Shown in pieces: positions 952-38,591 of a DNA stretch of 64,000 nt. Each line of letters starts with the position of its first letter. Position 1 is the stretch's first letter. The stretch comes from Fibrobacteria bacterium (GTDB lineage Bacteria > Fibrobacterota > Fibrobacteria > UBA5070): NCBI GenBank assembly GCA_035352895.1, contig DAOPYN010000017.1, positions 1 through 64,000 on the forward strand, read 5' to 3'. The position numbers and the translations under genes were made by a program. The notes beneath the pieces were generated by a model that worked only from the letters and a program-made list of their open reading frames with translations, was not told where the DNA came from and ran no database searches.

Positions 952-2229
952 TTGCCCGCGACTTCCATGAATTCACTCCAAGCCCTCCGATCCGGACGCC
1001 TATCGGGCGCGACCCATGTGCGCCTGTGCGAAGGCCTGGAGACCTTCCCTCCGGAGCTCCTGGACCTCGCGCCCACGTTGCGGATCCTGGATCTTTCGGG
1101 AAACCGCCTGTCCCACCTCCCCTTGGACCTCCCGCGGCTGGAAAACCTGGAGATCCTGTTCTGTTCGGGGAATCGTTTCGAACACCTGCCGGAGGTCCTT
1201 GGGGACTGCCTCAACCTGGAAATGGTGGGATTCAAATCCAACCGGATCCGCACGGTGGACCCCACCTCGCTGCCCAAGCGCCTGCGGTGGCTCATCCTCA
1301 CCGACAACCAGGTGGACTCGCTCCCGGAAACACTGGGCGATCGGCCCCGGCTCCAGAAGTTGATGCTGGCGGGGAACCGCCTCTGCTCGCTCCCCGAATC
1401 CCTCCGCGACCATGGTGCGCTGGAACTTCTGCGGATCGCGGCCAACCGGCTGGACCACATCCCGGATTGGTTGTTTTCCCTTCCGAAACTCGCCTGGCTG
1501 GCCACCTCGGGCAATCCCGGATCGTTCCGCGGAAAATCTTCCACCCAACCGCCCATCCCCTGGAACGCCGTGTCCGTGGGCGACCTGCTGGGCCAGGGAG
1601 CCTCGGGGGAAACCTTCCGCGCCACCTGGGAGCATCGCCCGATCGCCCTGAAGCTGTTCAAGGGAGCCACAACCTCCGACGGCACTCCGGACGACGAGAT
1701 GGAGACGTGCCTCGCGGCCGGGACCCATCCGCATCTGCCGGGGGTTCTGGGACGGATCGAGGGCCATCCGGAAGGACGACACGGCTTGGCGATGGAGCTG
1801 TTGCCGGAGGGATCCACCGTGTTGGGAAATCCTCCGGACTTCCGCTCCTGCACCCGCGACACCTATCCCGCCCACCTGCGGTTTTCGCCGGAGGAGATCC
1901 GGCAAGTCGCCTCCGCGGTGGCCTTGGCCTGCGCCCACCTGGCCGCCAAGGGGATCTCCCATGGCGACCTCTACGCGCACAACATCCTGGTGTCGGGGGC
2001 CCGGACCTACCTGACGGATTTTGGCGCCGCCAACCGGTGGGATGCAACCGACTCCCTCGAGCGCGCTCGCTGGTACGCCCTGGAGGCCCGCGCTTTCGGG
2101 TGTCTGCTGGACGATCTCGCGGAGCGGTGCGGAGGAGCACCACCGGACTCGCTGCGACAGCTTCGCGACGCGTGTCTGGATCCGCATCCGGGGCATCGTC
2201 CCCGGGTGGAGGACTGGCGGATCGAATGA
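952..2229 (+). CDS. Leucine-rich-repeat protein fused to a eukaryotic-like Ser/Thr protein kinase domain
   Basis: N-terminal LRRs (LDLSGNRLSHLP, FCSGNRFEHLP, LTDNQVDSLP, LAGNRLCSLP, IAANRLDHIP). Kinase Gly-loop GQGASGETF with downstream VAIK-like IALK, catalytic HGDLYAHNIL, and DFG (TDFGAA). Confidence 0.75.
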   Translation: MPATSMNSLQALRSGRLSGATHVRLCEGLETFPPELLDLAPTLRILDLSGNRLSHLPLDLPRLENLEILFCSGNRFEHLPEVLGDCLNLEMVGFKSNRIRTVDPTSLPKRLRWLILTDNQVDSLPETLGDRPRLQKLMLAGNRLCSLPESLRDHGALELLRIAANRLDHIPDWLFSLPKLAWLATSGNPGSFRGKSSTQPPIPWNAVSVGDLLGQGASGETFRATWEHRPIALKLFKGATTSDGTPDDEMETCLAAGTHPHLPGVLGRIEGHPEGRHGLAMELLPEGSTVLGNPPDFRSCTRDTYPAHLRFSPEEIRQVASAVALACAHLAAKGISHGDLYAHNILVSGARTYLTDFGAANRWDATDSLERARWYALEARAFGCLLDDLAERCGGAPPDSLRQLRDACLDPHPGHRPRVEDWRIE

Positions 2230-19082: not shown

Positions 19083-19348
19083 AATCGGTTCTCCCTTTGA
19101 AACAAACCGGGAATGCCAGGTCAGGTCGGAATGTAGGCGGGTGGCATTGCCATCGCTCCTCGTTTCCCGGCAAAGGGTCCTCTTTTCGGGAGTGCCCTTT
19201 TCTGGAGAGTCCAAACTCCCCCGGAGGTGGCTTCCCGCCGCACTCCATCCTTGGCTCCCCGAAAAACCGATGCATGGCACTTGCGTTTCCGAAGCGCAAA
19301 AACGATATTATTGAATACTGATTCAGTTATCATGTGGGAGGCACTTCG

Positions 19349-26699: not shown

Positions 26700-28079
26700 C
26701 TACCAGACCGCGACCAATCCCAGAGGTGAAGGCGAACCCACCGCGGCCACCGCGTGCACGCCGCGGGACAGAGCGGGTGCTCGACCCGCGCCGTCGCGCA
26801 GGGAAACACGGGCTTCCAAGGCTCCGGTCATGGAGCGGATCTCCACCTCCTGCAACGTGCGGTCCCCGGTGTCCAGGAGCCCATCGCGAAGCGTGACGCC
26901 ACCGCGGCCGGAGCGCACCTGGGGCCGCGCGGAGGAAAGGCTCGCCACCCCATCCAGGATTCCCTGGCGGAAGGCTTCGTAGGAAGGCTTGGCGCGGTAC
27001 TGCTCGTCGAACACGAGCGCGCTCTGGCCCATGCGCCAGTAGGCGTTTGTATTGTCCGCCACGCCCCAGAAGCAGATCCAGTTGGCGCCACCGCCCACCG
27101 CGGCGGCGGCCATCTGGCGGTACTGGCGCGACTGGGTGGAATCGAAGGAGGCGTTGCGGTGGGCGCTGGTCGCCGCGGCGATGGGATCGGCGTCGCCATA
27201 GTCCACCTCGGTGATGTACACCTCCAGGCCCAGCTTGCGGTATTCGGCCACCGCCGCCTTCAGCTTGGACCAGTCGTAGGTCACGTCCGTGCGGAAGTGT
27301 CCCTGGAACCCCACCGCGTCCAGCGGGACTCCTGTGTTCAGGAGGTGCTTCACCAGCTGGTAGAAGGCCTTGGCCTTGCGCGATCCGTCCCAGAACTCGA
27401 TGCCGTAGTCGCGCAGTTCCAGCTTGCCGTTGGTGCGCTTGCGGGCAATTTCGAATGCCTTGCGGATGTAGACCGGATGCTTGCCGTAGATCTTGTTGGA
27501 GGCCGGAAGTCCCGACTTGTCCTCTTCCCAGCCCATCTTCTGCCAGGGGTTGGTGTTGGCCACGCTGGACGAATCCCAATACGACCCGTCCCACATGAAG
27601 GCCTCGTTGACCACGTTCCAGTAGTCGACCTTGGTGGCGTTCCCGTTGGAGGTCATCGCGAAGTCGATCCACTTCTGCAACAGGGTCTCCAGTTCCGAAG
27701 GCGTCCATCTCCCCTCGTTGAGCCAGGTGGGGAAATAGGTGGGGGATCCGGCCAGCAGGTGGAGGGACACCTTCTTGCCCTGGGATTTGGCGATCTCGAT
27801 GACCTTGTTGGGATTGGTCATGTCGAAGCCGACCCCGGAAAGGCCTGTGCCCTTCCACGTGTCCCAGGAAGGGTAGGAGGTGGTCTGCACCAGCCCGAAT
27901 TCGCGCCCGATCACGGACTTGACCGAGTCTGCTCGTTTCCAGGACACCACGCCCTCCTTGTCGGAAGAACCGACCTCGGCGGTGGCCCCCATCAGGATAC
28001 CGTTCTGCGTGAGACCTCCGGCACCCAATGCGGGAATGGCCGCGGCCATGGCGATGGAAAGGGTCAGATTGGAATGCAT
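26700..28079 (-). CDS. Glycoside hydrolase family 10 endo-1,4-beta-xylanase with Arg-rich C-terminal domain
   Basis: Signal peptide MHSNLTLSIAMAAAIPALGAGG; GH10 acid/base WNVVNEAF and nucleophile YITEVDY; C-terminal basic domain. Confidence 0.85.
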   Translation of the reverse strand: MHSNLTLSIAMAAAIPALGAGGLTQNGILMGATAEVGSSDKEGVVSWKRADSVKSVIGREFGLVQTTSYPSWDTWKGTGLSGVGFDMTNPNKVIEIAKSQGKKVSLHLLAGSPTYFPTWLNEGRWTPSELETLLQKWIDFAMTSNGNATKVDYWNVVNEAFMWDGSYWDSSSVANTNPWQKMGWEEDKSGLPASNKIYGKHPVYIRKAFEIARKRTNGKLELRDYGIEFWDGSRKAKAFYQLVKHLLNTGVPLDAVGFQGHFRTDVTYDWSKLKAAVAEYRKLGLEVYITEVDYGDADPIAAATSAHRNASFDSTQSRQYRQMAAAAVGGGANWICFWGVADNTNAYWRMGQSALVFDEQYRAKPSYEAFRQGILDGVASLSSARPQVRSGRGGVTLRDGLLDTGDRTLQEVEIRSMTGALEARVSLRDGAGRAPALSRGVHAVAAVGSPSPLGLVAVW

Positions 28080-28186
28080 GGAAGGCGTCTCCGGAAATGG
28101 GCGTTGAGTTGCTTGGACTCCTGGTGGGGAACTTACGGGCCAGGCCCCGGACACGCCGGGGGGAAAGCGACCCAACCCATCCATTC

Positions 28187-28203
28187 TGTATCCTTTGTAT
28201 CCT
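28187..28203 (+). promoter_or_regulatory. Direct repeat TGTATCC-TT-TGTATCC (9-bp register) 12-14 nt upstream of the regulator start codon; the same motif precedes the paralogous regulator at 35157-35172
   Basis: tcTGTATCCttTGTATCCttttccccacggATG here. On the minus strand at 35144-35173 the motif reads cTGTATCaacTGTATtgttcggaccATG. Confidence 0.45.
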
Positions 28204-28214
28204 TTTCCCCACGG

Positions 28215-29570
28215 ATGAAACACCTACGCGAATCGCTGATCGCCCGATCCGGCAGAGAAGGGCAGCCTCTGCCTTCGGTGCGAGCCCTGGCCCACGCGCA
28301 CCAGGTGACTCCCCGCACCATGCACAGGGCGCTGAAATCCCTGGAGCGGGAAGGGCTGGTCCATGCGCTGGATCGCAAGGGGTTCTTCTGGGGAAGGAAC
28401 CCTCCCCCACCCGCGCCGCTGGCCGCATCCTCCCGTTCCCGGTCGGAGGACGTGCGCGAGCGGCTCCTGGAAGACCTCCGGAGGGGAGTCTTCCATCCGC
28501 ACAAGCCCCTGCCGGACTCCCGGACCCTGGGGGAGGTCCACGGGATCGGCGCGCGGAGGATGTCGCTTTTGTTGTCGGATCTTGTCAACAACGGATGGCT
28601 GGTGCGCAAGGGGAGATCGCTCCACATCCCCCCTCCCACGCCGGGGCGCTCCCGCGCCACCGTGGCGGTGGTGTCGCGCTGCGACGAGCATGGCATGCTC
28701 CTGTTGGATTCGGAACGGGAAACGGACTTCCTGAAGTCCGTGCGGATCCAATCGCGGGAACTGGCGCTGGAACCACTCTTCGCGGGGTGGCACGAAAGCC
28801 CTTCCGGTGGACGACTCCTGGACCACCAGGGATCGCCCCTGCGTCTGGACCGCCAGCCGCTGCCGCTCCTGGGCATCCTCGCCTCCACCTGGCTGATCCA
28901 GGATCCGCAAGATCTCATCGCGCACCTGCGATCGGCAAAGGTGCCGCTTTCCGTCTGGTGGGAGCATCCCGCCTCGAGCTTTCCCCACCTCCGATCCGGT
29001 TCGCTGGTGGGTTTCAACCTTTCCTTCGGAGCGAGTGCCGGATGGGAGGCGGGCAGGCATCTGCGGACCATGGGCATCCGATCGCTGGCGTTCGTCTCGC
29101 CCTTCCACGCCTCGGAGTGGTCGCGCTCGCGCCTGGAGGGATTGCGTCAAGCGATGGAAGGGACCGGCATCGAAGTGCTGGAACGGGTGGACGCCACCTG
29201 GGAAAGCGCCTGGCACCTGCGCCAGGACGCGGGAAGCGCACCCGAAGGGGAACGCAGGCTGCGCTCCCTGGTGGAGGGCCTGGTCTCCCCGGCCGACCTC
29301 GCCGACCATCCCGACTGGGTTGTCGTCAACGACCACGTGGCCGTCCACCTGATCGGGATCTGCCGGGAACGGTCGATCCCGCGTCCGCGCATCCTCTCGT
29401 TCGACAACACATCGGCCAGCGAGGCCCACCAGTTCGACTCCTTCGAGTTCCACACCGACGGCATGGTCCGCCAGATGCTCCAGCAGACGCTCCACCCCAA
29501 CGCCAAGCTCTTCCAGGATGGCGGACTCCACGAGATGATGGGCCGGCTGGTGGTGCGCGAACGCAGGTGA
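28215..29570 (+). CDS. GntR-type wHTH transcriptional regulator with large C-terminal sugar-binding-like (LacI/PBP-type) domain
   Basis: N-terminal LPSVRALAHAHQVTPRTMHRALKSLEREGLVHALDRKGFFW (GntR wHTH); about 350-aa C-terminal domain; 448-aa paralog at 33800-35146. Confidence 0.7.
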   Translation: MKHLRESLIARSGREGQPLPSVRALAHAHQVTPRTMHRALKSLEREGLVHALDRKGFFWGRNPPPPAPLAASSRSRSEDVRERLLEDLRRGVFHPHKPLPDSRTLGEVHGIGARRMSLLLSDLVNNGWLVRKGRSLHIPPPTPGRSRATVAVVSRCDEHGMLLLDSERETDFLKSVRIQSRELALEPLFAGWHESPSGGRLLDHQGSPLRLDRQPLPLLGILASTWLIQDPQDLIAHLRSAKVPLSVWWEHPASSFPHLRSGSLVGFNLSFGASAGWEAGRHLRTMGIRSLAFVSPFHASEWSRSRLEGLRQAMEGTGIEVLERVDATWESAWHLRQDAGSAPEGERRLRSLVEGLVSPADLADHPDWVVVNDHVAVHLIGICRERSIPRPRILSFDNTSASEAHQFDSFEFHTDGMVRQMLQQTLHPNAKLFQDGGLHEMMGRLVVRERR

Positions 29571-29703: not shown

Positions 29704-30885
29704 ATGGATGAAGGCATGGCCACCCACTTCCTGGGAGTGGGCTACCCCTACGGCGCCTGCGGGGTCCCCGACGAGGTCGCCGCGTGGGAAGGCGCCCAGG
29801 ACACCCTTTCGGGCCAAGCCAACCCGTTTGACTACGTGGCCCTGAACGTGTACCACACCCCGGGTCGCTACGACATGCCCGCCCCGCACCCCATGGTGGG
29901 CGCGGACACCGCCTACATGGGCATGTACGACAACGGCCGCAACTGCGGCCGCTGGATCCGCTTCGAGCTCGGCGACACCTGCGACGGGGCCAACGACGGC
30001 GCGAAGAATGCCGATTTCTGTCGCGGCGGGACCGGATGGCACCCCAACGCCTACACCGGATCCGGAGGCTACGCGATCGTCTTCGACCAGTGCACCGACG
30101 GCAACGCATGGTGCCGCGACTCCAGGTACCACCTGGATCTCCACACACCCATCCTCTCGCATCTGCGCAAGGACGGCGCGCTCCTTCCCGCGCTCGCCCA
30201 ACCGGTGCTGGGACCGGACGGCAAACCGCAAGGGGACAAGAACAACCCCTGGGCCATCTACTACCAGGTGTCCGGGTTCCTGAATCCCAAGGTCCGGTGG
30301 GAGTTCGTGCCCGCGCCCTCCTACCAGGGCGAGCCCCGCTTCTGGTTTTCCGTGGATTCCAAGCCGTACTACTACCGCCTAATGGTGACCCATCTTCCGG
30401 ACGGCATCCATGGCGTGGAGCAACTGGTGGGATCCACGTGGAAGCCGGCGAAGATGGAAGGCGACATGGGACAGCTCTGGATCCTTCCCGATCCATCCAC
30501 CAGCTCCGTGACCGTGCGGTTGATCGATGCCCACGACAAGCCGGTGATGGGCGGGCGCAGCTGGAGCATGAACTTCCCCACCGCCTGCGGCGGCGTGTGC
30601 GAGAAACCCGCCACGGCGGCCGCCAACGTGGTGGGAAGCGGAGGCGTCCTGTCCACCTCGTCGACACCGCGCAACCGATCCATCCATCCCCGCGTCCTGG
30701 CGGATGGAACCCTGTGGATTCCCGGCACGCCCCAGGGATGGATCCAACTCCATCGACCGGATGGCCGAGCACTGGAACGCCTGGAGATCCGATCGGCGAT
30801 CGCGCGTCCCACCTCCCGCGGCCTGGTCGTCGTTCGCTGGACCCACGAGGGAATCGCCCGATCCGCATTCCTCTTGCTCCCCTGA
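29704..30885 (+). CDS. Expansin-like / GH45-like DPBB-domain protein with Arg-rich C-terminal domain; N-terminal region possibly frameshifted
   Basis: THFLGVGYPYGACG (expansin D1 GACG motif), YHLDLH (HFD-like motif), aromatic-rich second domain, C-terminal basic domain; a signal-peptide-like MNRIAASTLLGIV lies in another frame just upstream. Confidence 0.5.
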   Translation: MDEGMATHFLGVGYPYGACGVPDEVAAWEGAQDTLSGQANPFDYVALNVYHTPGRYDMPAPHPMVGADTAYMGMYDNGRNCGRWIRFELGDTCDGANDGAKNADFCRGGTGWHPNAYTGSGGYAIVFDQCTDGNAWCRDSRYHLDLHTPILSHLRKDGALLPALAQPVLGPDGKPQGDKNNPWAIYYQVSGFLNPKVRWEFVPAPSYQGEPRFWFSVDSKPYYYRLMVTHLPDGIHGVEQLVGSTWKPAKMEGDMGQLWILPDPSTSSVTVRLIDAHDKPVMGGRSWSMNFPTACGGVCEKPATAAANVVGSGGVLSTSSTPRNRSIHPRVLADGTLWIPGTPQGWIQLHRPDGRALERLEIRSAIARPTSRGLVVVRWTHEGIARSAFLLLP

Positions 30886-30963
30886 TCCTTCATCGGAATC
30901 GGTGCGCGACGGACACCTCCGCCATGCTAGATTCACCGGCACGCACTTCCATCCAGGACCACA

Positions 30964-32209
30964 GATGAAATCCGCAATCCGCATCGTTCCCGCACTGCTG
31001 GGTCTTTCGGCGACCGGCTGGTCGGGCGCCGTGACCACGGTGCCCTGGAACGGCCACAAGGGCGCCATCACCTTCACCTTCGACGACGGCTGCTCCACCC
31101 ATCTGACCAACGTCCTTCCCGCCCTGAAGGACCGGAAGCTCACGGCGACGTTCTTCCTCATCGGAAACTCCGATTTCTCCTCGCGCAAGGAGCAGTGGAA
31201 GGCCGCGGCCCTCGAGGGCCACGAGCTGGCCAACCACACCACCCTGCACGACGATCCGAGGTCCCTGGACTCGGCCAAGATCGCCACCGAGATCGGCGAC
31301 CAGGCCAAGGCGCTGCGCGCGGTGGATCCCGCCGTGGAAGCCGTGACCCTGGCCTATCCCTACTGCGGCACCAACGACATGGTGAACCGGATCGCCGACC
31401 GCGAGAACATCATCGCCCGCACCTGCGGCGGCTCCGGCCTCTTCGCCTGGAACTCCGTTCCCTCCGAGTGGATGAGCATGACCTCCTTCATCCTCCAGGA
31501 CGACGCTTCGGTCCCCGATGCGCTCAAGCAGATCGACAAGGCGGCCTCCGACAATTCCTGGCTGGTCACGCTCAACCACGGCATCGGCGGCGACTGGAAC
31601 TTCATCGGGACCACCCAGGCGATCTCCATGTTCGACCGTGCCGTCGCATCGAAGGCCTGGGTGGCCACCTACCAGACCGTGGCCGCCTACTGGCGCGCGT
31701 CCAAGACCATGGACACGGTGAAGGCCAGCCCGTTCTCGGCCGGCTGGGACCTGCGCTGGACCTCGCCGCATCCCCGCATGCCCAGAAGCGTGAAGCTCCG
31801 CGTCAAGCTCGACACCAACGTGTTCAGAAGCTCGCCCAACGTGACCCAGGACGGCACCCCCATCGCCCGCGAAGCGGACGGCTCCTACGTGATCGAATTC
31901 ATGAAGCTCGCCCTGAACGTGTTCAAGTCGAGTTCCGCGACCCCCCGGAGGAGCCATCCTCATCAGCCGACGGTCGTCCGATCGAACAACCTCGGAGAAT
32001 GGCATCTGGAGGGGATCGAAGACGGAGTCTACTCCTATGCGCTGCTGCAAGCCGATGGCACCAGGATCGGCGAAGGAAACCTGGTGGCGCGGGGGCGTTC
32101 GGCCACCGTCACCTCGCGTTCCGACTCCCCTCGCGCGGACGTGCTGGAATTGCGTTCTCTCACAGGTCAGGCAGACCGCAGTCTGATCCGCCTCCCAGCC
32201 CTGCGCTGA
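30964..32209 (+). CDS. Carbohydrate esterase family 4 polysaccharide deacetylase (acetyl-xylan-esterase-like), secreted
   Basis: Signal peptide MKSAIRIVPALLGLSATGWSGA; NodB motif ITFTFDDG; His motifs of CE4; Arg-rich C-terminus. Confidence 0.8.
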
Positions 32210-32308: not shown

Positions 32309-33580
32309 TCAGGTGCCGATCGGATTTCGAGGTTTCGACAGGACCGCCCGCAACCCGGCCAGGATCGCCACCCCCACCACACACCAACCCACCCCGACCA
32401 ACCCGAAGCGATCCGCCATCCTTCCCACCAACGGTGCGCCGATCATCACGCAGAAGGAAGATAGCTGGGCTTCCACCGACAGCACCGCCGCGCCGTACCT
32501 GGAATCCGACGCATCGTCCAGCCGGTCGATGAGCAAGGGTCTCCATACGTTCTCCAGGACCACCATCAAGACGAATCCCGACAGAGACAGGGCCGCGGCT
32601 CCGGCGAAGGAGCCTTCCGAACGGATCCCGAGCACGATCGACGATCCCACCAGCAGCAGCCCCAACCACAGGAAGGGAAACCGGCTTCTGGACAAACGAT
32701 CCAACCGATGCGACTGCCTGCTTGCCAAGGCCGACACGACATTCAATCCGAAGTAGAGAACGGCCAGGACGATGGAAGAACGCCGGAACCCATCCAGCCC
32801 GGAAAGCGCGCCACCAAGAGCCAGGAATGCGGTCGATCCCACCACCAACGGTTGCAGGTAACCTCGCACGGACTTTCCCGTCGCCTGGAGGATCGCCGAC
32901 TGGACGAACAACCCGCGCAGCTCCCGATGGGCCAGACAGGCCCGCGTCTCGCTCCACATGGTCCGGAAAAGGCCGCCTGCGGACCTCGACGTCCTTCCGA
33001 TCTCGCCCTCCAGGATCTTTGGATAGGTCCCCACGTTGAACAAGTTCAGGACGTATGGAACGATGGCCCAAAGGAACACGCGCTCGTAGCTTCCGGAGAT
33101 CAGCACCATCGCGCCGGAAAGCAAAGCGGACACGGCCGAGCCCAGTTTCGACCACGAACGTGTGAAGCCATAGATCCGCGGCTTCTCGGATTCCCTCCCG
33201 GTCAGACGCAGATGATGGAAGATCATCGCCTTGTGGGTACCGGAGCGGAAGGATTCCCCGACGGCGAAAGCGAACATGGAAACGAACAACCAAGGAATCG
33301 ATCGCGTCAGGCCGAAGCCCAGGAAGGAGGCGATGTAGGCGCAGAAGCAAACGAGCAGGGAGGTCTTGCGACCATGGAAATCCGCCAGGAAACCCGCAGG
33401 GACGCCCATCAGGTTCACGCAAACCTCGCGGAAGGAAAACAAGAGTCCGATCTGGAAGAACGACAGTCCCTTGGCTTGGAGCACCAGAAAGAAAAACGGC
33501 TCGTAGTACTGCTGGTTCTTCAGGAACCCGTAGAGGCTGAATCTCCACAGGAGCGGATCCGGAGAGCGATCGATCGACAT
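32309..33580 (-). CDS. MFS transporter
   Basis: About 12 TM helices; MFS loop motif GFLADFHGRK between TM2/3. Confidence 0.8.
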   Translation of the reverse strand: MSIDRSPDPLLWRFSLYGFLKNQQYYEPFFFLVLQAKGLSFFQIGLLFSFREVCVNLMGVPAGFLADFHGRKTSLLVCFCAYIASFLGFGLTRSIPWLFVSMFAFAVGESFRSGTHKAMIFHHLRLTGRESEKPRIYGFTRSWSKLGSAVSALLSGAMVLISGSYERVFLWAIVPYVLNLFNVGTYPKILEGEIGRTSRSAGGLFRTMWSETRACLAHRELRGLFVQSAILQATGKSVRGYLQPLVVGSTAFLALGGALSGLDGFRRSSIVLAVLYFGLNVVSALASRQSHRLDRLSRSRFPFLWLGLLLVGSSIVLGIRSEGSFAGAAALSLSGFVLMVVLENVWRPLLIDRLDDASDSRYGAAVLSVEAQLSSFCVMIGAPLVGRMADRFGLVGVGWCVVGVAILAGLRAVLSKPRNPIGT

Positions 33581-33799: not shown

Positions 33800-35146
33800 C
33801 TATCCGCGCAGGACCAGCCGACCCACCATTTCCTGGACCACTTCCCGTTCGCCCAGAAGCGCCGTTGGATGGAACAGGTGGTGGAGCATCCTCCTCACCA
33901 TCCCTTCGGTGTGGAACTCGAAGGAATCGAAGCGATGGGATTCGCTCGCGGAGGTCGCGTCGAAGGAAACGATCCGTGGCCGATCCCATCCGCGTTCCCT
34001 GACAAGTTCCAGAAGCACCACCGCGGCCATGTCGTTGACCACCACCCATACGGGTACATCCCGCAGAGTGGGATCGTCCAGGAACCCGGAAAGGACCCTG
34101 CGCAGGATGCGCTCGCCACCGCGCGGGCCGCGCCCGATCTCGTCCATGTGCCAACGGCTGTGGTAACGGACCTCGATGCACTCGCGGACGGTTCCCCCCG
34201 TGGCGGAAAGCGCCCTGCGCAAGCCCAAAAGTCTCGCCCGCGACCAGTCGTTTCCATGGTATGGGGAGATCCAGGCCGCTTCCGGACAACCTTCGGAGGC
34301 CAGGCGGGCACCGACGGCCTCGCCGGGCCCGGATCCGAAGGAAAGATTGAATGCCGCCATCGCGGATCCGGCCACGCGGGAGGGGCGGTAGTCCTCCACG
34401 GCACGCTCCCACCATACGGAAACGGGCAGGGACCAGCGGCGCACCGCGGCCAGCAGCCTCTGGGGATCGTGGACCAACCAAGTGGACACGATCACCCCGA
34501 TGGGAACGCCGGAGTGATGCATCTCTTCCAGCAAGGCACCGGAGGCGTCCAGGAACCGGATCCCCGCCGGGGTCTCGTGGCAGCCCACCACGTGCACGCG
34601 CAGATCCCGTTCCGATGCCTCCCGCCGCACCGATTTCATGAAATCGATCTCGCGCTCGGTGTCCAGGAGGATCCGTCCCCGATCGTCGCACCGGACCACC
34701 ACCAGCACCGCCCCCAGGGAGCCCTGCAGGACCGGGGAAGGAAGGAAGTACGACCTGCCTCGGCGCACCAGCATGCCCGCGGCGACGCGTTCTTCCAGAA
34801 ATTGTCCAATCCTTCGCGGGGAAACCCCGTAGAGGATCGCCAGTTCCTTGCGCGCGGGAAGCGCCTTGGAGGGATGGAACACCCCACGCCGAAGATCTGT
34901 CCCGAGCCTTTCCCGCCCGTCGCGTTCGGCATCGGAGATTCCCGGCGCGGCAAGGTCGGGGCGAGCCCCCCAGAAGGCCCCCTTGCGGTCCAGAACGTGG
35001 ATTTCGCCGCGCGAGGCGAGATCGCCCAACGCCTTCTGGACGGTCTGCGGAGACGCTCCGAAGGTTTGGGCCAGGGAACGGATGGAAGGGAGGGGGCCAT
35101 GGGTCGCGCGGGCTTCCAGCAGCCGTTGGACGACGAGTTCACGCAT
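33800..35146 (-). CDS. GntR-type regulator with C-terminal sugar-binding-like domain (paralog of 28215-29570)
   Basis: Colinear similarity to the other regulator along the full length (e.g. RRGVFHP, VWWE, RPRI(L/V)SFD.TSASE.H.FDSFEFHT.GMVR.ML). Confidence 0.7.
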   Translation of the reverse strand: MRELVVQRLLEARATHGPLPSIRSLAQTFGASPQTVQKALGDLASRGEIHVLDRKGAFWGARPDLAAPGISDAERDGRERLGTDLRRGVFHPSKALPARKELAILYGVSPRRIGQFLEERVAAGMLVRRGRSYFLPSPVLQGSLGAVLVVVRCDDRGRILLDTEREIDFMKSVRREASERDLRVHVVGCHETPAGIRFLDASGALLEEMHHSGVPIGVIVSTWLVHDPQRLLAAVRRWSLPVSVWWERAVEDYRPSRVAGSAMAAFNLSFGSGPGEAVGARLASEGCPEAAWISPYHGNDWSRARLLGLRRALSATGGTVRECIEVRYHSRWHMDEIGRGPRGGERILRRVLSGFLDDPTLRDVPVWVVVNDMAAVVLLELVRERGWDRPRIVSFDATSASESHRFDSFEFHTEGMVRRMLHHLFHPTALLGEREVVQEMVGRLVLRG

Positions 35147-35277
35147 GGTCCGAACAATACAGTTGATACAGTCATGCAGGCAAGGCGCGATTTCCAGTGG
35201 CGTTCACCGAACCGAACCGGCTAGGTTCCCCAATCAGGAACGGGTCTTCCACGGCGAAGCCCTCCGGAAAAGGGAAA

Positions 35278-36345
35278 CACATGTTGCGGAGATGGGTATT
35301 GATGGCGATGGCGGCTCTGGCCCCGGTCGGGGCCGCGGAGATGAAGATCGGCGCCTGGGTGGGAGGTTTCTACGGAGAGAGCTACCCCCAGCCGGAGAAG
35401 GAGAACGTGGATTCGTTCCAGGTCCTTCAGGGAAGGAAGCTGGATTTGATCAGCTACTTCGCCATGTTCAACGAATCCTGGGCCAACACCCGCCCCTACG
35501 CGAAGGTGGCCGACGCCAACGGATCCATCCTGCTGGTCACCTGGATGGCCAACGGATACCCTCTGGACTCCATCCTCGCGGGTCGTGCGGACCTGCGCAT
35601 CCGGGCCTACGCCGCCGGCATCAAGGCCTGGAAGAAGGAGGTCTGGCTGCGTCCCCTCCACGAGGCCAACGGCGACTGGTACGATTGGGGCATCGGGAAG
35701 GCGGGCTCCGGAAACACCAGCGCCAAGTGCATCGCCGCCTGGAAGCACATCGTCAAGATCTTCCGCGACTCGGCGGTGACCAACGTGAAGTGGGTGTGGA
35801 CCACCAACGCCACCAACAGCGGTTCGGGCACCAGCCTGATGGGCCACTACCCCGGCGACGACTGGGTGGACTACAACTCCATCGACGGCTACAACTGGGG
35901 AAACACCCAGAGCTGGTCCACCTGGAAGAGCTTCGAGGAGACCTTCACCCCGGCCTACTCGCTTCTGGCCAAGCAGTCCAAGCCCATCCTCATCGCGGAA
36001 TTCTCCTCCACCGAACACGGTGGCGACAAGGCCGCCTGGATCAAGGAGATGTTCCAGGTCCTCCCCACGAAGTTCCCGAAGATCATGGGCTTGATGTGGT
36101 TCTCCCAGTCCAAGAGCGCCGAAGCCGATTGGGCCCTGAACACATCCCCGGCCGCCCTGGAGGCCTGGAAGGAAGGGATCGCCCAGTTCCCCTTTTCTTC
36201 GGCTGCTCCCCGGATCGCGCCCGCGTCCGCCGCGAAGCCCGCACCCAGACTGCAAGGAGGGTCGCTCCAGTGGGGCTTGACCCCCGCCAACACGGATCGC
36301 GGCGAAACCTTCAGCGCCTCCGGTCGGTTGCAGCGCGGACGCTGA
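35278..36345 (+). CDS. Glycoside hydrolase family 26 (beta-mannanase-type), secreted
   Basis: Signal peptide MLRRWVLMAMAALAPVGAAE; GH26 acid/base region WLRPLHEANGDWYDWG; nucleophile region ILIAEFSS. Confidence 0.7.
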   Translation, partial: HMLRRWVLMAMAALAPVGAAEMKIGAWVGGFYGESYPQPEKENVDSFQVLQGRKLDLISYFAMFNESWANTRPYAKVADANGSILLVTWMANGYPLDSILAGRADLRIRAYAAGIKAWKKEVWLRPLHEANGDWYDWGIGKAGSGNTSAKCIAAWKHIVKIFRDSAVTNVKWVWTTNATNSGSGTSLMGHYPGDDWVDYNSIDGYNWGNTQSWSTWKSFEETFTPAYSLLAKQSKPILIAEFSSTEHGGDKAAWIKEMFQVLPTKFPKIMGLMWFSQSKSAEADWALNTSPAALEAWKEGIAQFPFSSAAPRIAPASAAKPAPRLQGGSLQWGLTPANTDRGETFSASGRLQRGR

Positions 36346-36348
36346 GAC

Positions 36349-38427
36349 TCAGGGAAGAACGGTGTGGAGCTGCCCTCCCAAGGGCAGCAGCCGGATGGCG
36401 ACGGATCCGTGGAGCGATTCGGGAAGCTCGGAGGTAGTCCGGGCTCCCAGCACCTGGAGAAGCTCTCCGGAAACGGAGCGCACCTCGAACCGGGCGTTCT
36501 CGGGCAAGTCGCCGGACACGATCAGCTTCCTTCCCTCCAAGCGGAAGCTGCGGACCTGGGCCACCGGTTGGACCGAAGCCACGGGAGGGGGAACTTCCTT
36601 GGCGGTCCACATCTGGTTTTTCGTGGCCCAATAGCGATACGGCATGACCTTGGCGCCATCGGCCAGGGACTTCTCGCCGCCATCCACGTCCAGCGACTTG
36701 CCGGAGCAGCCGTTGACGATCTGCAGGGTCCCGGTGCCGTCGTCGACGACCTTCCAGCGGCTGGCCGATCCGGTGTCGGCGACCACCACCAGCTCGGCGC
36801 CGTCCTGGACCGACGAGCCCGCCACCGACAGCCGTTTGCCGTCCTGCTCCAGGGCCCATTCGCCGCCGTCCAGCTTCCGCGCCTTCCACGCCTGGGAGGC
36901 CTTGCCGGAATCCGTCCACTGGACGATGCCGGAGGCCGAAGCGGTGAGCGCCTTCCCGCTGTGGGATGCCTTGAAGGTGTACCACTTGCCGTCCGACAGA
37001 GGCGAGACGGGAACGATCTCCCACTGCTGGTTGGCCTTCCCCTTGTAGATCCCCAGGGCGATGCCGCCGGGAGCGGAGGCGGGGATCTCCATGATCTTGC
37101 CCAGGGTGTTCTCGGCGATCATCCGCCACGTCCCGGGAGCGGAGGCCACCAGGTGCCACTTCTGGTTCCACGCATCCGACGGCGTGTACTGGAGGATCTT
37201 GGCGCCCACCTCCCGCGAGGCGCCGTTGACGTCCATGCGCATCCCGGACAGCACCGAGGAGAACCGGTACTCGGAATTGCCCAGGCTCTCCAGCTTCCAG
37301 CGCTGCGCGATGGTGCCGGAATCCGTCACCACGGCCACGGGACCCGTGCTGGACTTGGAGGGTGCGGCCAGGACCTTGCCGGTTTCCTTTGAACGGATGG
37401 TGTAGATGCCGGTCTGGAAGAACGGCTCGCCGCGCACCCAGCCGGAATCGGCGACCGGGTACCAGCGGTCCATCCAGGGCATGGAGACCGCCCCGTTGGC
37501 GATGCTGAAGGGAAGGAGCACCGTGCGCGAGGATGCGAAGTCGTTGACCGACCAGCGGTCGCCCATGTAGACGAAATCCGTCCCGTTGTTCCCCGGCATG
37601 GGGAACGACCACCCCACCTGCGATTCGTAGGTGTGCGTCCCCGCCACGCCCAGGGTCTTGCCCGCCGACCACGGACCGGCCAGGGTCTTGGCCGTGAAGT
37701 AGCGGTTGTCGTTGAAGTCCCAACCCGTGCACCACGACATCAGCCAGTAGTACATCCCTCCGGACTTCACGATCGCATGGCCCTCGCACTCCATGTCGTC
37801 GGAGGCGTTGCCCCGGTAGATCTCGCGGACCACCTTGGTGTAGGTGTCGTCCAGCTCGAAGAGGCTCACGTTCTGGTTGCCCTTGGTGGTGCAGATCAGG
37901 TAGGCCTTGCCGTCGGCGTCCTGGTAGACGTTCAGATCGCGACTGTCCAGTTCCAACGGCCGGAAATGCCCCTGGAACTTGTAGTCGCCGTCGATCTTGT
38001 CGGAGGTGGCCCAGGCGACCTCGGCCACACTGTAGGCGTTGTGGCCCTCGTAGTGCATCCAGATCACGAATTGGCCGGTCTTCTTGTTGTGCAGGATCTT
38101 GGCCCGCTCCACGGTGGCCTTGTTGTCCAACAACGGATCCGAATCGTGCCGGAGGATCTGCTTGACGAAGGTCCAGTGCACCAGATCCTTGGAGGAATAC
38201 AGGTTGATCCCCACGAAATAGGAGTTGTCGGCGGCCCGATCCATGCCCCAGTGGTAGTAGATGCCGTCCACCTGGATGATCCCGCCTTCGGTGGCGGCCA
38301 CCACCTGGCCACGGTTGTCCTTCCAGTCGCCTCCGGGCACGATGGGCTCGGGGCAGGCCCAGGCGCTCCCCACGGAGAGAAGCAAGGTTCCGGCGATCGA
38401 TGCGAAGGCGCGAATTCCAGCGGCCAT
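36349..38427 (-). CDS. Glycoside hydrolase family 43 (5-bladed propeller) + ricin-type beta-trefoil CBM13 repeats + Arg-rich C-terminal domain
   Basis: Signal peptide; GH43 N-terminus GIYYHWGMDRA...LYSSKDLVHW; Q-x-W lectin repeats (QRWKL, QKWHL, QQWEIV, QAWKA, SRWKV, QMWTA); C-terminal basic domain. Confidence 0.85.
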   Translation of the reverse strand: MAAGIRAFASIAGTLLLSVGSAWACPEPIVPGGDWKDNRGQVVAATEGGIIQVDGIYYHWGMDRAADNSYFVGINLYSSKDLVHWTFVKQILRHDSDPLLDNKATVERAKILHNKKTGQFVIWMHYEGHNAYSVAEVAWATSDKIDGDYKFQGHFRPLELDSRDLNVYQDADGKAYLICTTKGNQNVSLFELDDTYTKVVREIYRGNASDDMECEGHAIVKSGGMYYWLMSWCTGWDFNDNRYFTAKTLAGPWSAGKTLGVAGTHTYESQVGWSFPMPGNNGTDFVYMGDRWSVNDFASSRTVLLPFSIANGAVSMPWMDRWYPVADSGWVRGEPFFQTGIYTIRSKETGKVLAAPSKSSTGPVAVVTDSGTIAQRWKLESLGNSEYRFSSVLSGMRMDVNGASREVGAKILQYTPSDAWNQKWHLVASAPGTWRMIAENTLGKIMEIPASAPGGIALGIYKGKANQQWEIVPVSPLSDGKWYTFKASHSGKALTASASGIVQWTDSGKASQAWKARKLDGGEWALEQDGKRLSVAGSSVQDGAELVVVADTGSASRWKVVDDGTGTLQIVNGCSGKSLDVDGGEKSLADGAKVMPYRYWATKNQMWTAKEVPPPVASVQPVAQVRSFRLEGRKLIVSGDLPENARFEVRSVSGELLQVLGARTTSELPESLHGSVAIRLLPLGGQLHTVLP

Positions 38428-38591
38428 GTCAAGTCTCCCGGGTCGTGAGGTGCGAACTGGGAATCTAGCCGCCCCGGATGGGCTACCGTGCCTGCTTTGT
38501 CCCGGCCAGGTCGAAAATTCTACAACAGGCCCCGAATGGCTACCTTGGGTTCCCCAATAACAAAGCCTATTTCGTTCCGGGGAGCCCCCAA

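Follow-up and report, generated by a model that had tools for sequence, protein, structure and literature searches.

The window considered here, that is, the whole stretch of 64 kb that was analysed, contains two copies of a small module in which the gene of a predicted regulator (R1 or R2) is divergent from a gene for a secreted hydrolase, and a short direct repeat lies between the two genes, close to the regulator start. The features of both modules are as follows.

26700-28079, minus strand: secreted GH10 xylanase-type gene, divergent from R1 (Pfam PF00331, E 1e-40; gene call).
28187-28204, plus strand: candidate operator O-R1, two 9-bp direct repeats TGTATCCTT TGTATCCTT, scoring 26 bits with the position weight matrix (PWM) described below.
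28215-29570, plus strand: regulator R1, 451 aa (Pfam, PDB sequence matches, AlphaFold2 and Foldseek; start backed by homologues).
29704-32209, plus strand: genes 3′ of R1, for a 393-aa protein (29704-30885) and a CE4 polysaccharide deacetylase (30965-32209).
32309-33580, minus strand: MFS transporter gene 3′ of R2 (Pfam; gene call).
33800-35146, minus strand: regulator R2, 448 aa, a paralogue of R1 with the same three-part architecture (Pfam, BLAST).
35153-35170, minus strand: candidate operator O-R2, reading TGTATCAAC TGTATTGTT on the minus strand (35170-35153), PWM score of 35 bits.
35281-36345, plus strand: secreted GH26-type gene, divergent from R2 (Pfam PF02156, E 4e-11; metagenome gene call from 35302).

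Several elements of this arrangement had been recognised in the initial annotation and were confirmed here. Thus, the divergent neighbours are indeed GH10 and GH26 genes, as indicated by the Pfam matches given above, and their products have signal-peptide-like N-termini; the regulators are paralogous (46% identity, E 1e-124); and the intergenic spacers, estimated at about 130 bp, measure 134-135 bp (28080-28214 between R1 and the GH10 gene, and 35147-35280 between R2 and the GH26 gene). We infer that R1 is probably co-transcribed with the genes of the 393-aa protein and the CE4 deacetylase, and R2 with that of the MFS transporter. The 393-aa protein has no match in Pfam or NCBIfam, and the R1 orthologues carry family-less or weakly beta-helix-like genes at the same position.

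It had also been proposed that an identical TGTATC-N3-TGTAT element is placed in the same way upstream of both regulators. The pairing itself was borne out, as TGTATNNNNTGTAT, with at most one mismatch allowed, is found exactly twice in the 64 kb (O-R1 and O-R2), where 0.10 matches are expected. Likewise, none of 100 shuffles reached at least two matches to TGTAT-N4-TGTAT, and the degenerate pattern YGTRT-N4-YGTRT finds the same two sites and nothing else in the window (0.35 expected). By contrast, the lone hexamer TGTATC is not enriched (five found versus 5.6 expected); consequently, the signal resides in the pairing and placement of the repeats. Other parts of the proposal had to be amended. 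TGTATC-N3-TGTAT is common to both copies, but their variable letters differ, and the ends of the element were misplaced by 1-2 nt. Moreover, in a common register, the distance to the start codon differs by 4 nt: the 18-mer ends 10 nt before the R1 ATG (28215) and 6 nt before the R2 ATG (35146), the corresponding distances from the end of the second TGTAT being 14 and 10 nt. The element, 18 nt long, is unstructured, and TATCCT in the second repeat of O-R1 (28198-28203) resembles a −10 hexamer, as does TATTGT in O-R2. The small size of the motif is the one point in favour of a chance similarity between two AT-rich spacers, an explanation whose probability we regard as negligible, since 0.1 occurrences are expected per window and the same placement recurs in 43 of 44 independent loci (see below).

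The products of both regulator genes had been described as GntR-type. A GntR winged helix is certainly present, but these are not plain members of the family, as each has two tandem heads and a LacI/GalR-type core. In R1, GntR winged helix 1 (residues 2-59) is followed by a disordered Pro-rich linker (60-75), a GntR-like winged helix 2 (76-137) and a LacI/PBP type I core (148-446). When scanned alone against Pfam PF00392, winged helix 1 scores above the curated cut-off in both proteins (E of 6e-13 for R1 and 1e-10 for R2), and winged helix 2 (residues 70-145 alone) matches profile positions 2-60 of 64 with an E of 1e-5 and 25.6 bits, slightly below the cut-off of 27 bits. Additionally, winged helix 2 matches the YvoA/NagR head in a PDB sequence search (E 5e-4), and the two heads are visible as an internal repeat by BLAST (E 0.006). 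The AlphaFold2 model of R1, with a mean pLDDT of 88, shows two helix-helix-helix-strand-strand units and an alpha/beta core. This core matches Pfam Peripla_BP_3 (E 2e-9), and its top Foldseek matches are the cores of LacI, Cra, CelR, RbsR and CcpA (E of about 1e-10). None of the NCBIfam models reaches its cut-off on the regulators. Judging from these matches and the predicted structure, the regulators are AraR-like chimeras (GntR head, LacI/GalR body) with a duplicated DNA-binding head. The presence of two tandem winged helices would be a natural, if unproven, reason for a head-to-tail operator. In our literature searches, no paper was found on tandem GntR domains, on this regulator family or on Fibrobacter regulators.

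Close homologues of R1 and R2 come solely from Fibrobacterota metagenome bins. A HMMER pass over 1.84 billion representatives retrieved 33 clusters at E ≤1e-30 and 529 at E ≤1e-10, and the named members of the family belong to Fibrobacter sp., Fibrobacteraceae and Chitinivibrionales. The loci compared were 15 from genomes and 33 from metagenomes, and then five more of the R1 clade. Among the sampled loci, the divergent gene is of the GH10 type in 6/6 of one class and of the GH26 type in 3/4 of the other (secreted GH10 or GH26-type genes in 9/10 overall), and distant two-headed members of the family adjoin GH16 genes. Within the phylum, the secreted hydrolase, the control region and the two-headed regulator have been multiplied together as one cassette. 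The N-terminus is present in 39 loci, and 38 of these have a direct repeat with a 9-bp period directly 5′ of the regulator start; so do all five of the additional R1-clade loci (43/44 in total). The consensus of the region is tC-TGTATcAaC-TGTATtATT, with both repeats equally conserved, including the TG and the preceding C. Other arrangements are found in the distant members that adjoin GH16 genes. In L054 (2470-2502), the repeated units are ACTGTTAT-ACTGTTGC, in direct orientation with a period of 8 bp, and they lie 17 nt 5′ of the start, whereas the second homologue in L006 (3795-3825) has an inverted repeat, TTGCATC-N9-GATGCAA, across its start codon.

The comparison of orthologous spacers is also informative. 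Between R1 and its orthologue in L001, all 18 positions of the 18-mer are kept, while the remaining spacer is 53% identical; between R2 and its orthologue in L013, the values are 18/18 and 61%. The preservation of every position amid such divergence constitutes a clean phylogenetic footprint. The same O-R1 18-mer is present in the orthologues L001, L056 and L057, and that of O-R2 is present in the orthologue L013 and in L030, L036 and L038. In addition, a PWM was built from the sites and used to scan the window and 246 kb of related loci (about 310 kb in all). At 12 bits or more, matches were found only at regulator starts, apart from one relic site in L011. This locus has two extra PWM matches, the first of which lies before another paralogue, truncated at the end of the contig. 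The second (1530-1680, minus strand) belongs to a relic region that retains an upstream box (described below), its 50-bp spacer and TGTATCATCTGTACTGTT beside a GH26-type gene; there, the regulator frame has shrunk to 11 codons and a PadR-like gene comes next. The relic operator may be served in trans by the paralogue in that locus, which has a near-identical operator. Overall, the footprint seen across the 44 other loci strongly supports the suggestion, made in the initial annotation, that an operator or promoter element would be shared by the two copies of a module formed by a sugar-responsive regulator and a carbohydrate-active enzyme (CAZyme).

The position of the repeats with respect to the regulator gene is characteristic of the family. 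Of 37 unique loci, 27 have 5-8 nt between the end of the 18-mer and the start codon, and just 3 have a sequence resembling a Shine-Dalgarno (SD) within the 20 nt that precede the regulator start. GGAG-like sequences, recognised by eye, precede the starts of the divergent hydrolase genes. The exceptions in spacing are L004, with a 43-nt leader and an SD, and the low-GC clade, where the distance is 12-13 nt. The R1 start illustrates this situation: the metagenome gene call opens at Met36, which gives a protein of 416 aa and loses half of winged helix 1, but homologues place the true start at 28215, where no SD sequence precedes it, and the failure of the gene caller to find it fits a start of this kind. 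In most loci, the second unit contains TATyrT 6-8 nt 5′ of the SD-less ATG. As for the triplet located 17 bp upstream of this hexamer, the TTG type is the commonest (7/37 loci), and the similarity to TTGACA is also highest at this point, albeit weakly so. A simple sigma-70 consensus scan of both spacers of the window returned no promoter at the threshold of the tool; thus, the proposal of a −10 element and a leaderless mRNA derives from the spacing across the family and not from a consensus match. As the element is a few nucleotides away from an ATG that has no SD, it would overlap the core promoter of the regulator. Judged from this arrangement, the operator probably overlaps the spacer and the −10 of the regulator promoter, and the corresponding mRNA would be leaderless or nearly so.

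From these observations, it could be argued that the element is nothing other than a specialised core promoter, in which TATnnT, perhaps duplicated upstream, would serve as the −10 for a leaderless mRNA and the holoenzyme alone would recognise it. The position of TATyrT and the TTG-type triplet agree with this explanation. However, the repeats are equally conserved and their 9-bp period is unlike any −35/−10 geometry, the motif is found at no other gene in the approximately 310 kb scanned, and the clade-specific variants discussed below would not be expected at a holoenzyme site. We therefore regard recognition by the holoenzyme alone as quite improbable. In any case, the core-promoter reading is compatible with an operator that overlaps the −10, rather than being an alternative to it.

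A second conserved element is found in the intergenic regions, at a fixed distance from the repeats. In the window, its two copies are the following.

28129-28136, minus strand: distal box of the R1 side, GAACTTAC on the plus strand and GTAAGTTC toward the GH10 gene.
35221-35228, plus strand: distal box of the R2 side, CTAGGTTC toward the GH26 gene and GAACCTAG in the regulator orientation.

On the R1 side, precisely 50 bp separate the box from the first repeat, and 49 nt separate it from the start codon of the GH10 gene; on the R2 side, the box and the first O-R2 repeat are also 50 bp apart. Across the family, a box with the consensus GAAsyTAy scores well in 37 loci; in 33 of these, it precedes the first repeat by 49-52 bp, the spacing being exactly 50 bp in 23. 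The DNA between the box and the repeats shows no sequence conservation. The geometry is also maintained in L005 (2965-2993), where there are three 9-bp units (TGTATCATC TGTATTATC TGTATTATT) and not two, as in the otherwise identical L022: despite the third unit, neither the 50 bp between the box and the first unit nor the 7 nt before the ATG has changed. Such constancy bears on a further explanation, namely, that UGUAU, present twice in the 5′ UTR, is an RNA-level signal controlling translation of the regulator mRNA. The element is within 15 nt of the start codon, the usual place for ribosome binding, and an SD is absent, as this explanation would have it. Nevertheless, the fixed 50 bp lead to a box outside any plausible regulator transcript, which points to an architecture at the DNA level; besides, two DNA-binding winged helices are present in the protein encoded next to it, and direct repeats of the TGTAT type are known targets of GntR proteins (PMC4494728). 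Accordingly, an RNA-level signal seems highly unlikely.

Concerning the role of the box, the reverse complement of GAAsyTAy is rTArsTTC, which is TAnnnT-like, and its distance to the divergent start codon is 30-60 nt. Boxes are infrequent in the window, where GTARSTTC has three matches versus 1.5 expected. A box-like sequence, GAATCTAG (38461-38468), lies 33 nt 5′ of a GH43/ricin-lectin gene (36349-38427, minus strand) that has neither TGTAT repeats nor an adjacent regulator, and a low-GC relative has a perfect TATAAT at the position matching the box. Based on these observations, the distal box is probably a −10-like element of the divergent hydrolase promoter, the role being our guess. If so, the centre of the operator would be near −72 of that promoter, about six helical turns away. 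The box was also considered as a third, inverted half-site, as GTAGCTTC and TGTATCATC are alike at about 7 of 10 positions, and this reading was not adopted because no covariation between the box and the operator type was found.

Every protein clade has its own operator variant. For instance, R1, L001, L056 and L057 combine TPRT, at the beginning of the first recognition helix (helix 3 in winged helix 1), with TGTATCCTT, present twice, and sister proteins with 63-69% identity have TPLT or SPLT together with Y-A-Y-T letters and never CCTT. The combination of TPRT and TGTATCCTT appears again in L012, which belongs to a separate clade (49% identical to the CAAC group); this covariation is confounded by shared descent, with two independent lineages available. 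An Arg-G pair is the commonest predicted base-specific contact of GntR proteins, and in the FadR and AraR complexes the main contact is from an arginine of the recognition helix to a G (PMC4494728). As CC corresponds to GG on the opposite strand, such a contact favours readout by the adjacent protein over a shared factor. Going by this pattern, residue 34, at the N-terminus of the first recognition helix, would read at least some of the variable letters (Arg with CC/GG). It cannot be the whole code, as an identical helix, SPQTVQKAL, is found with different operators (CAAC/TGTT versus CATC/CATT), so other residues must contribute. Additionally, in the R1 clade both repeats have changed jointly, and winged helix 1 alone differs, with the helix of winged helix 2 remaining GARRM. 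A dimer that supplies winged helix 1 twice would fit this observation better than a single chain that reads both repeats.

The main competing explanation is that one shared (global) factor binds the element, such as a catabolite-control protein gating all the xylanase and mannanase modules. This would account for the near invariance of the TGTAT core and the distal box among paralogues that are merely 40-50% identical, and for the relic site in L011, which has been kept beside a GH26-type gene even though the regulator gene was lost. However, a paralogue could just as well serve that relic in trans, and the variable letters, which are clade-specific and preserved at 18/18 positions between orthologues, are difficult to reconcile with a single protein, particularly as the variant tracks residue 34 of the adjoining regulator in two lineages. 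Furthermore, in about 310 kb the motif is present at no other gene, which would be odd for a global regulator. We consequently consider a shared factor unlikely.

Thus, on the strength of the comparative data, it is likely that TGTAT-N4-TGTAT is the cognate operator of the adjoining regulator. Such an operator would consist of two 9-bp units (C-TGTAT-y-A-w) arranged head to tail, with a weak −35-like TTG on one side and the start codon on the other, and the TATnnT of its second unit, by its position upstream of the SD-less ATG, would place it on the core promoter of a leaderless regulator operon. Binding in the absence of a sugar effector would silence this operon, and an oligosaccharide bound to the LacI-type core would lift the silencing. 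The same bound protein could also act on the hydrolase promoter from about −72, either by an activation of the LysR-like or class I-like type or by cooperative repression. The variable letters of the units would keep the paralogues apart.

A more elaborate version of this mechanism can be put forward, albeit tentatively, as we consider that it is rather more likely to be wrong than right when all of its parts are taken jointly. According to this version, a single chain would bind both 9-bp units as an intramolecular pseudo-dimer, in which the second, conserved helix possibly acts as an anchor and the first one sets the identity of the paralogue. The complex would occupy the leaderless promoter of its own gene and, helically phased by the 50 bp, would also flank the hydrolase promoter on its upstream side. 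If this were true, one bound protein would be both an autorepressor and a sugar-dependent activator. Duplication would have spread the whole cassette (hydrolase, box, 50 bp, repeats and regulator) within Fibrobacterota, and single substitutions in the recognition helix (for instance, R34/L34/Q34) would have given rise to new specificities.

The initial annotation regarded direct repeats as unusual for GntR proteins. This is correct insofar as most GntR operators are palindromes, but there are documented direct-repeat operators, including those of FarR, NagQ, NanR and the MocR group (PMC4494728). In the window, no inverted partner of the unit was found with the PWM on either strand near O-R1 or O-R2, nor do these sites have the GT-Nx-AC palindrome. 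FarR/MngR, NagQ and NanR share with R1 and R2 the GntR winged helix and the direct-repeat operators, and the FarR unit, direct repeats of TGTATTAWTT (PMC4494728), almost equals the unit described here, TGTATTATT. By contrast, these proteins have one winged helix per chain, a UTRA or FCD effector domain and a different repeat period. A HutC-type membership was rejected, as there is no UTRA match in Pfam and the C-terminus has a LacI-type fold. MocR proteins (GabR, PdxR) also bind direct repeats and place their DNA-binding heads head to tail (PMC4494728), but they have an aminotransferase-like PLP domain and widely separated repeats (ATACCA in GabR). Membership in this group was rejected as well, because the PdxR, GabR and PtsJ models match the winged helix only, far below their cut-offs.

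In LysR-type regions, the regulator is divergent from its target, and a site on its own promoter, involved in autorepression, is about 65-75 bp upstream of the target start. The likeness to the modules described here lies in the layout of the divergent control region; the protein family and the DNA-binding fold differ. The most similar architecture is that of AraR of Bacillus subtilis, with a GntR winged helix at the N-terminus and a LacI/GalR-type sugar-binding core at the C-terminus (PMC1950556), that is, the same chimera of GntR head and LacI/GalR-type core that is seen in R1 and R2. AraR represses genes for the utilisation of hemicellulose sugars, regulates itself and recognises a half-site with TGTA(C) (PMC1950556, PMC4494728). 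Nevertheless, AraR has a single winged helix, and its operators are 16-bp palindromes to which it binds as a symmetric dimer, whereas R1 and R2 have two heads and a head-to-tail operator. Additionally, the AraR DNA-binding entries (4EGY and others) are absent among the PDB sequence matches to the regulators with an E up to 1, so this search provides no evidence of orthology between R1/R2 and AraR. The head-to-tail layout in association with a LacI-type body whose head is duplicated, the fixed geometry of the two promoters and the phylum-wide radiation appear to be undescribed.

Fibrobacterota are major degraders of plant cell walls. To our knowledge, hemicellulase switching in this phylum is essentially undescribed. 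The present analysis provides a testable cis-element with about 45 natural variants and a probable trans-factor, together with a first specificity rule, which would relate residue 34 to positions 6-7 of the unit, and a stereotyped bidirectional control region with a fixed geometry of 50 bp. The single-chain, two-headed architecture appears to be new to the GntR family and would explain a head-to-tail operator without the need for an unusual dimer. Orthogonal pairs of operators and regulators that sense xylo- or manno-oligosaccharides might also be useful as biosensor parts.

Two other sequences of the window deserve mention. An imperfect direct repeat, ATGGGCTACC (38478-38487) and AATGGCTACC (38535-38544), with copies about 57 bp apart, lies upstream of a methionyl-tRNA synthetase gene. 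Finally, an AT-rich inverted repeat, TGAAT-N4-ATTCA (19312-19325), is located just 5′ of a TetR-family gene, the first one of an efflux cluster (outer-membrane factor, membrane-fusion protein and ABC-2), and it is likely to be the operator of this TetR protein.
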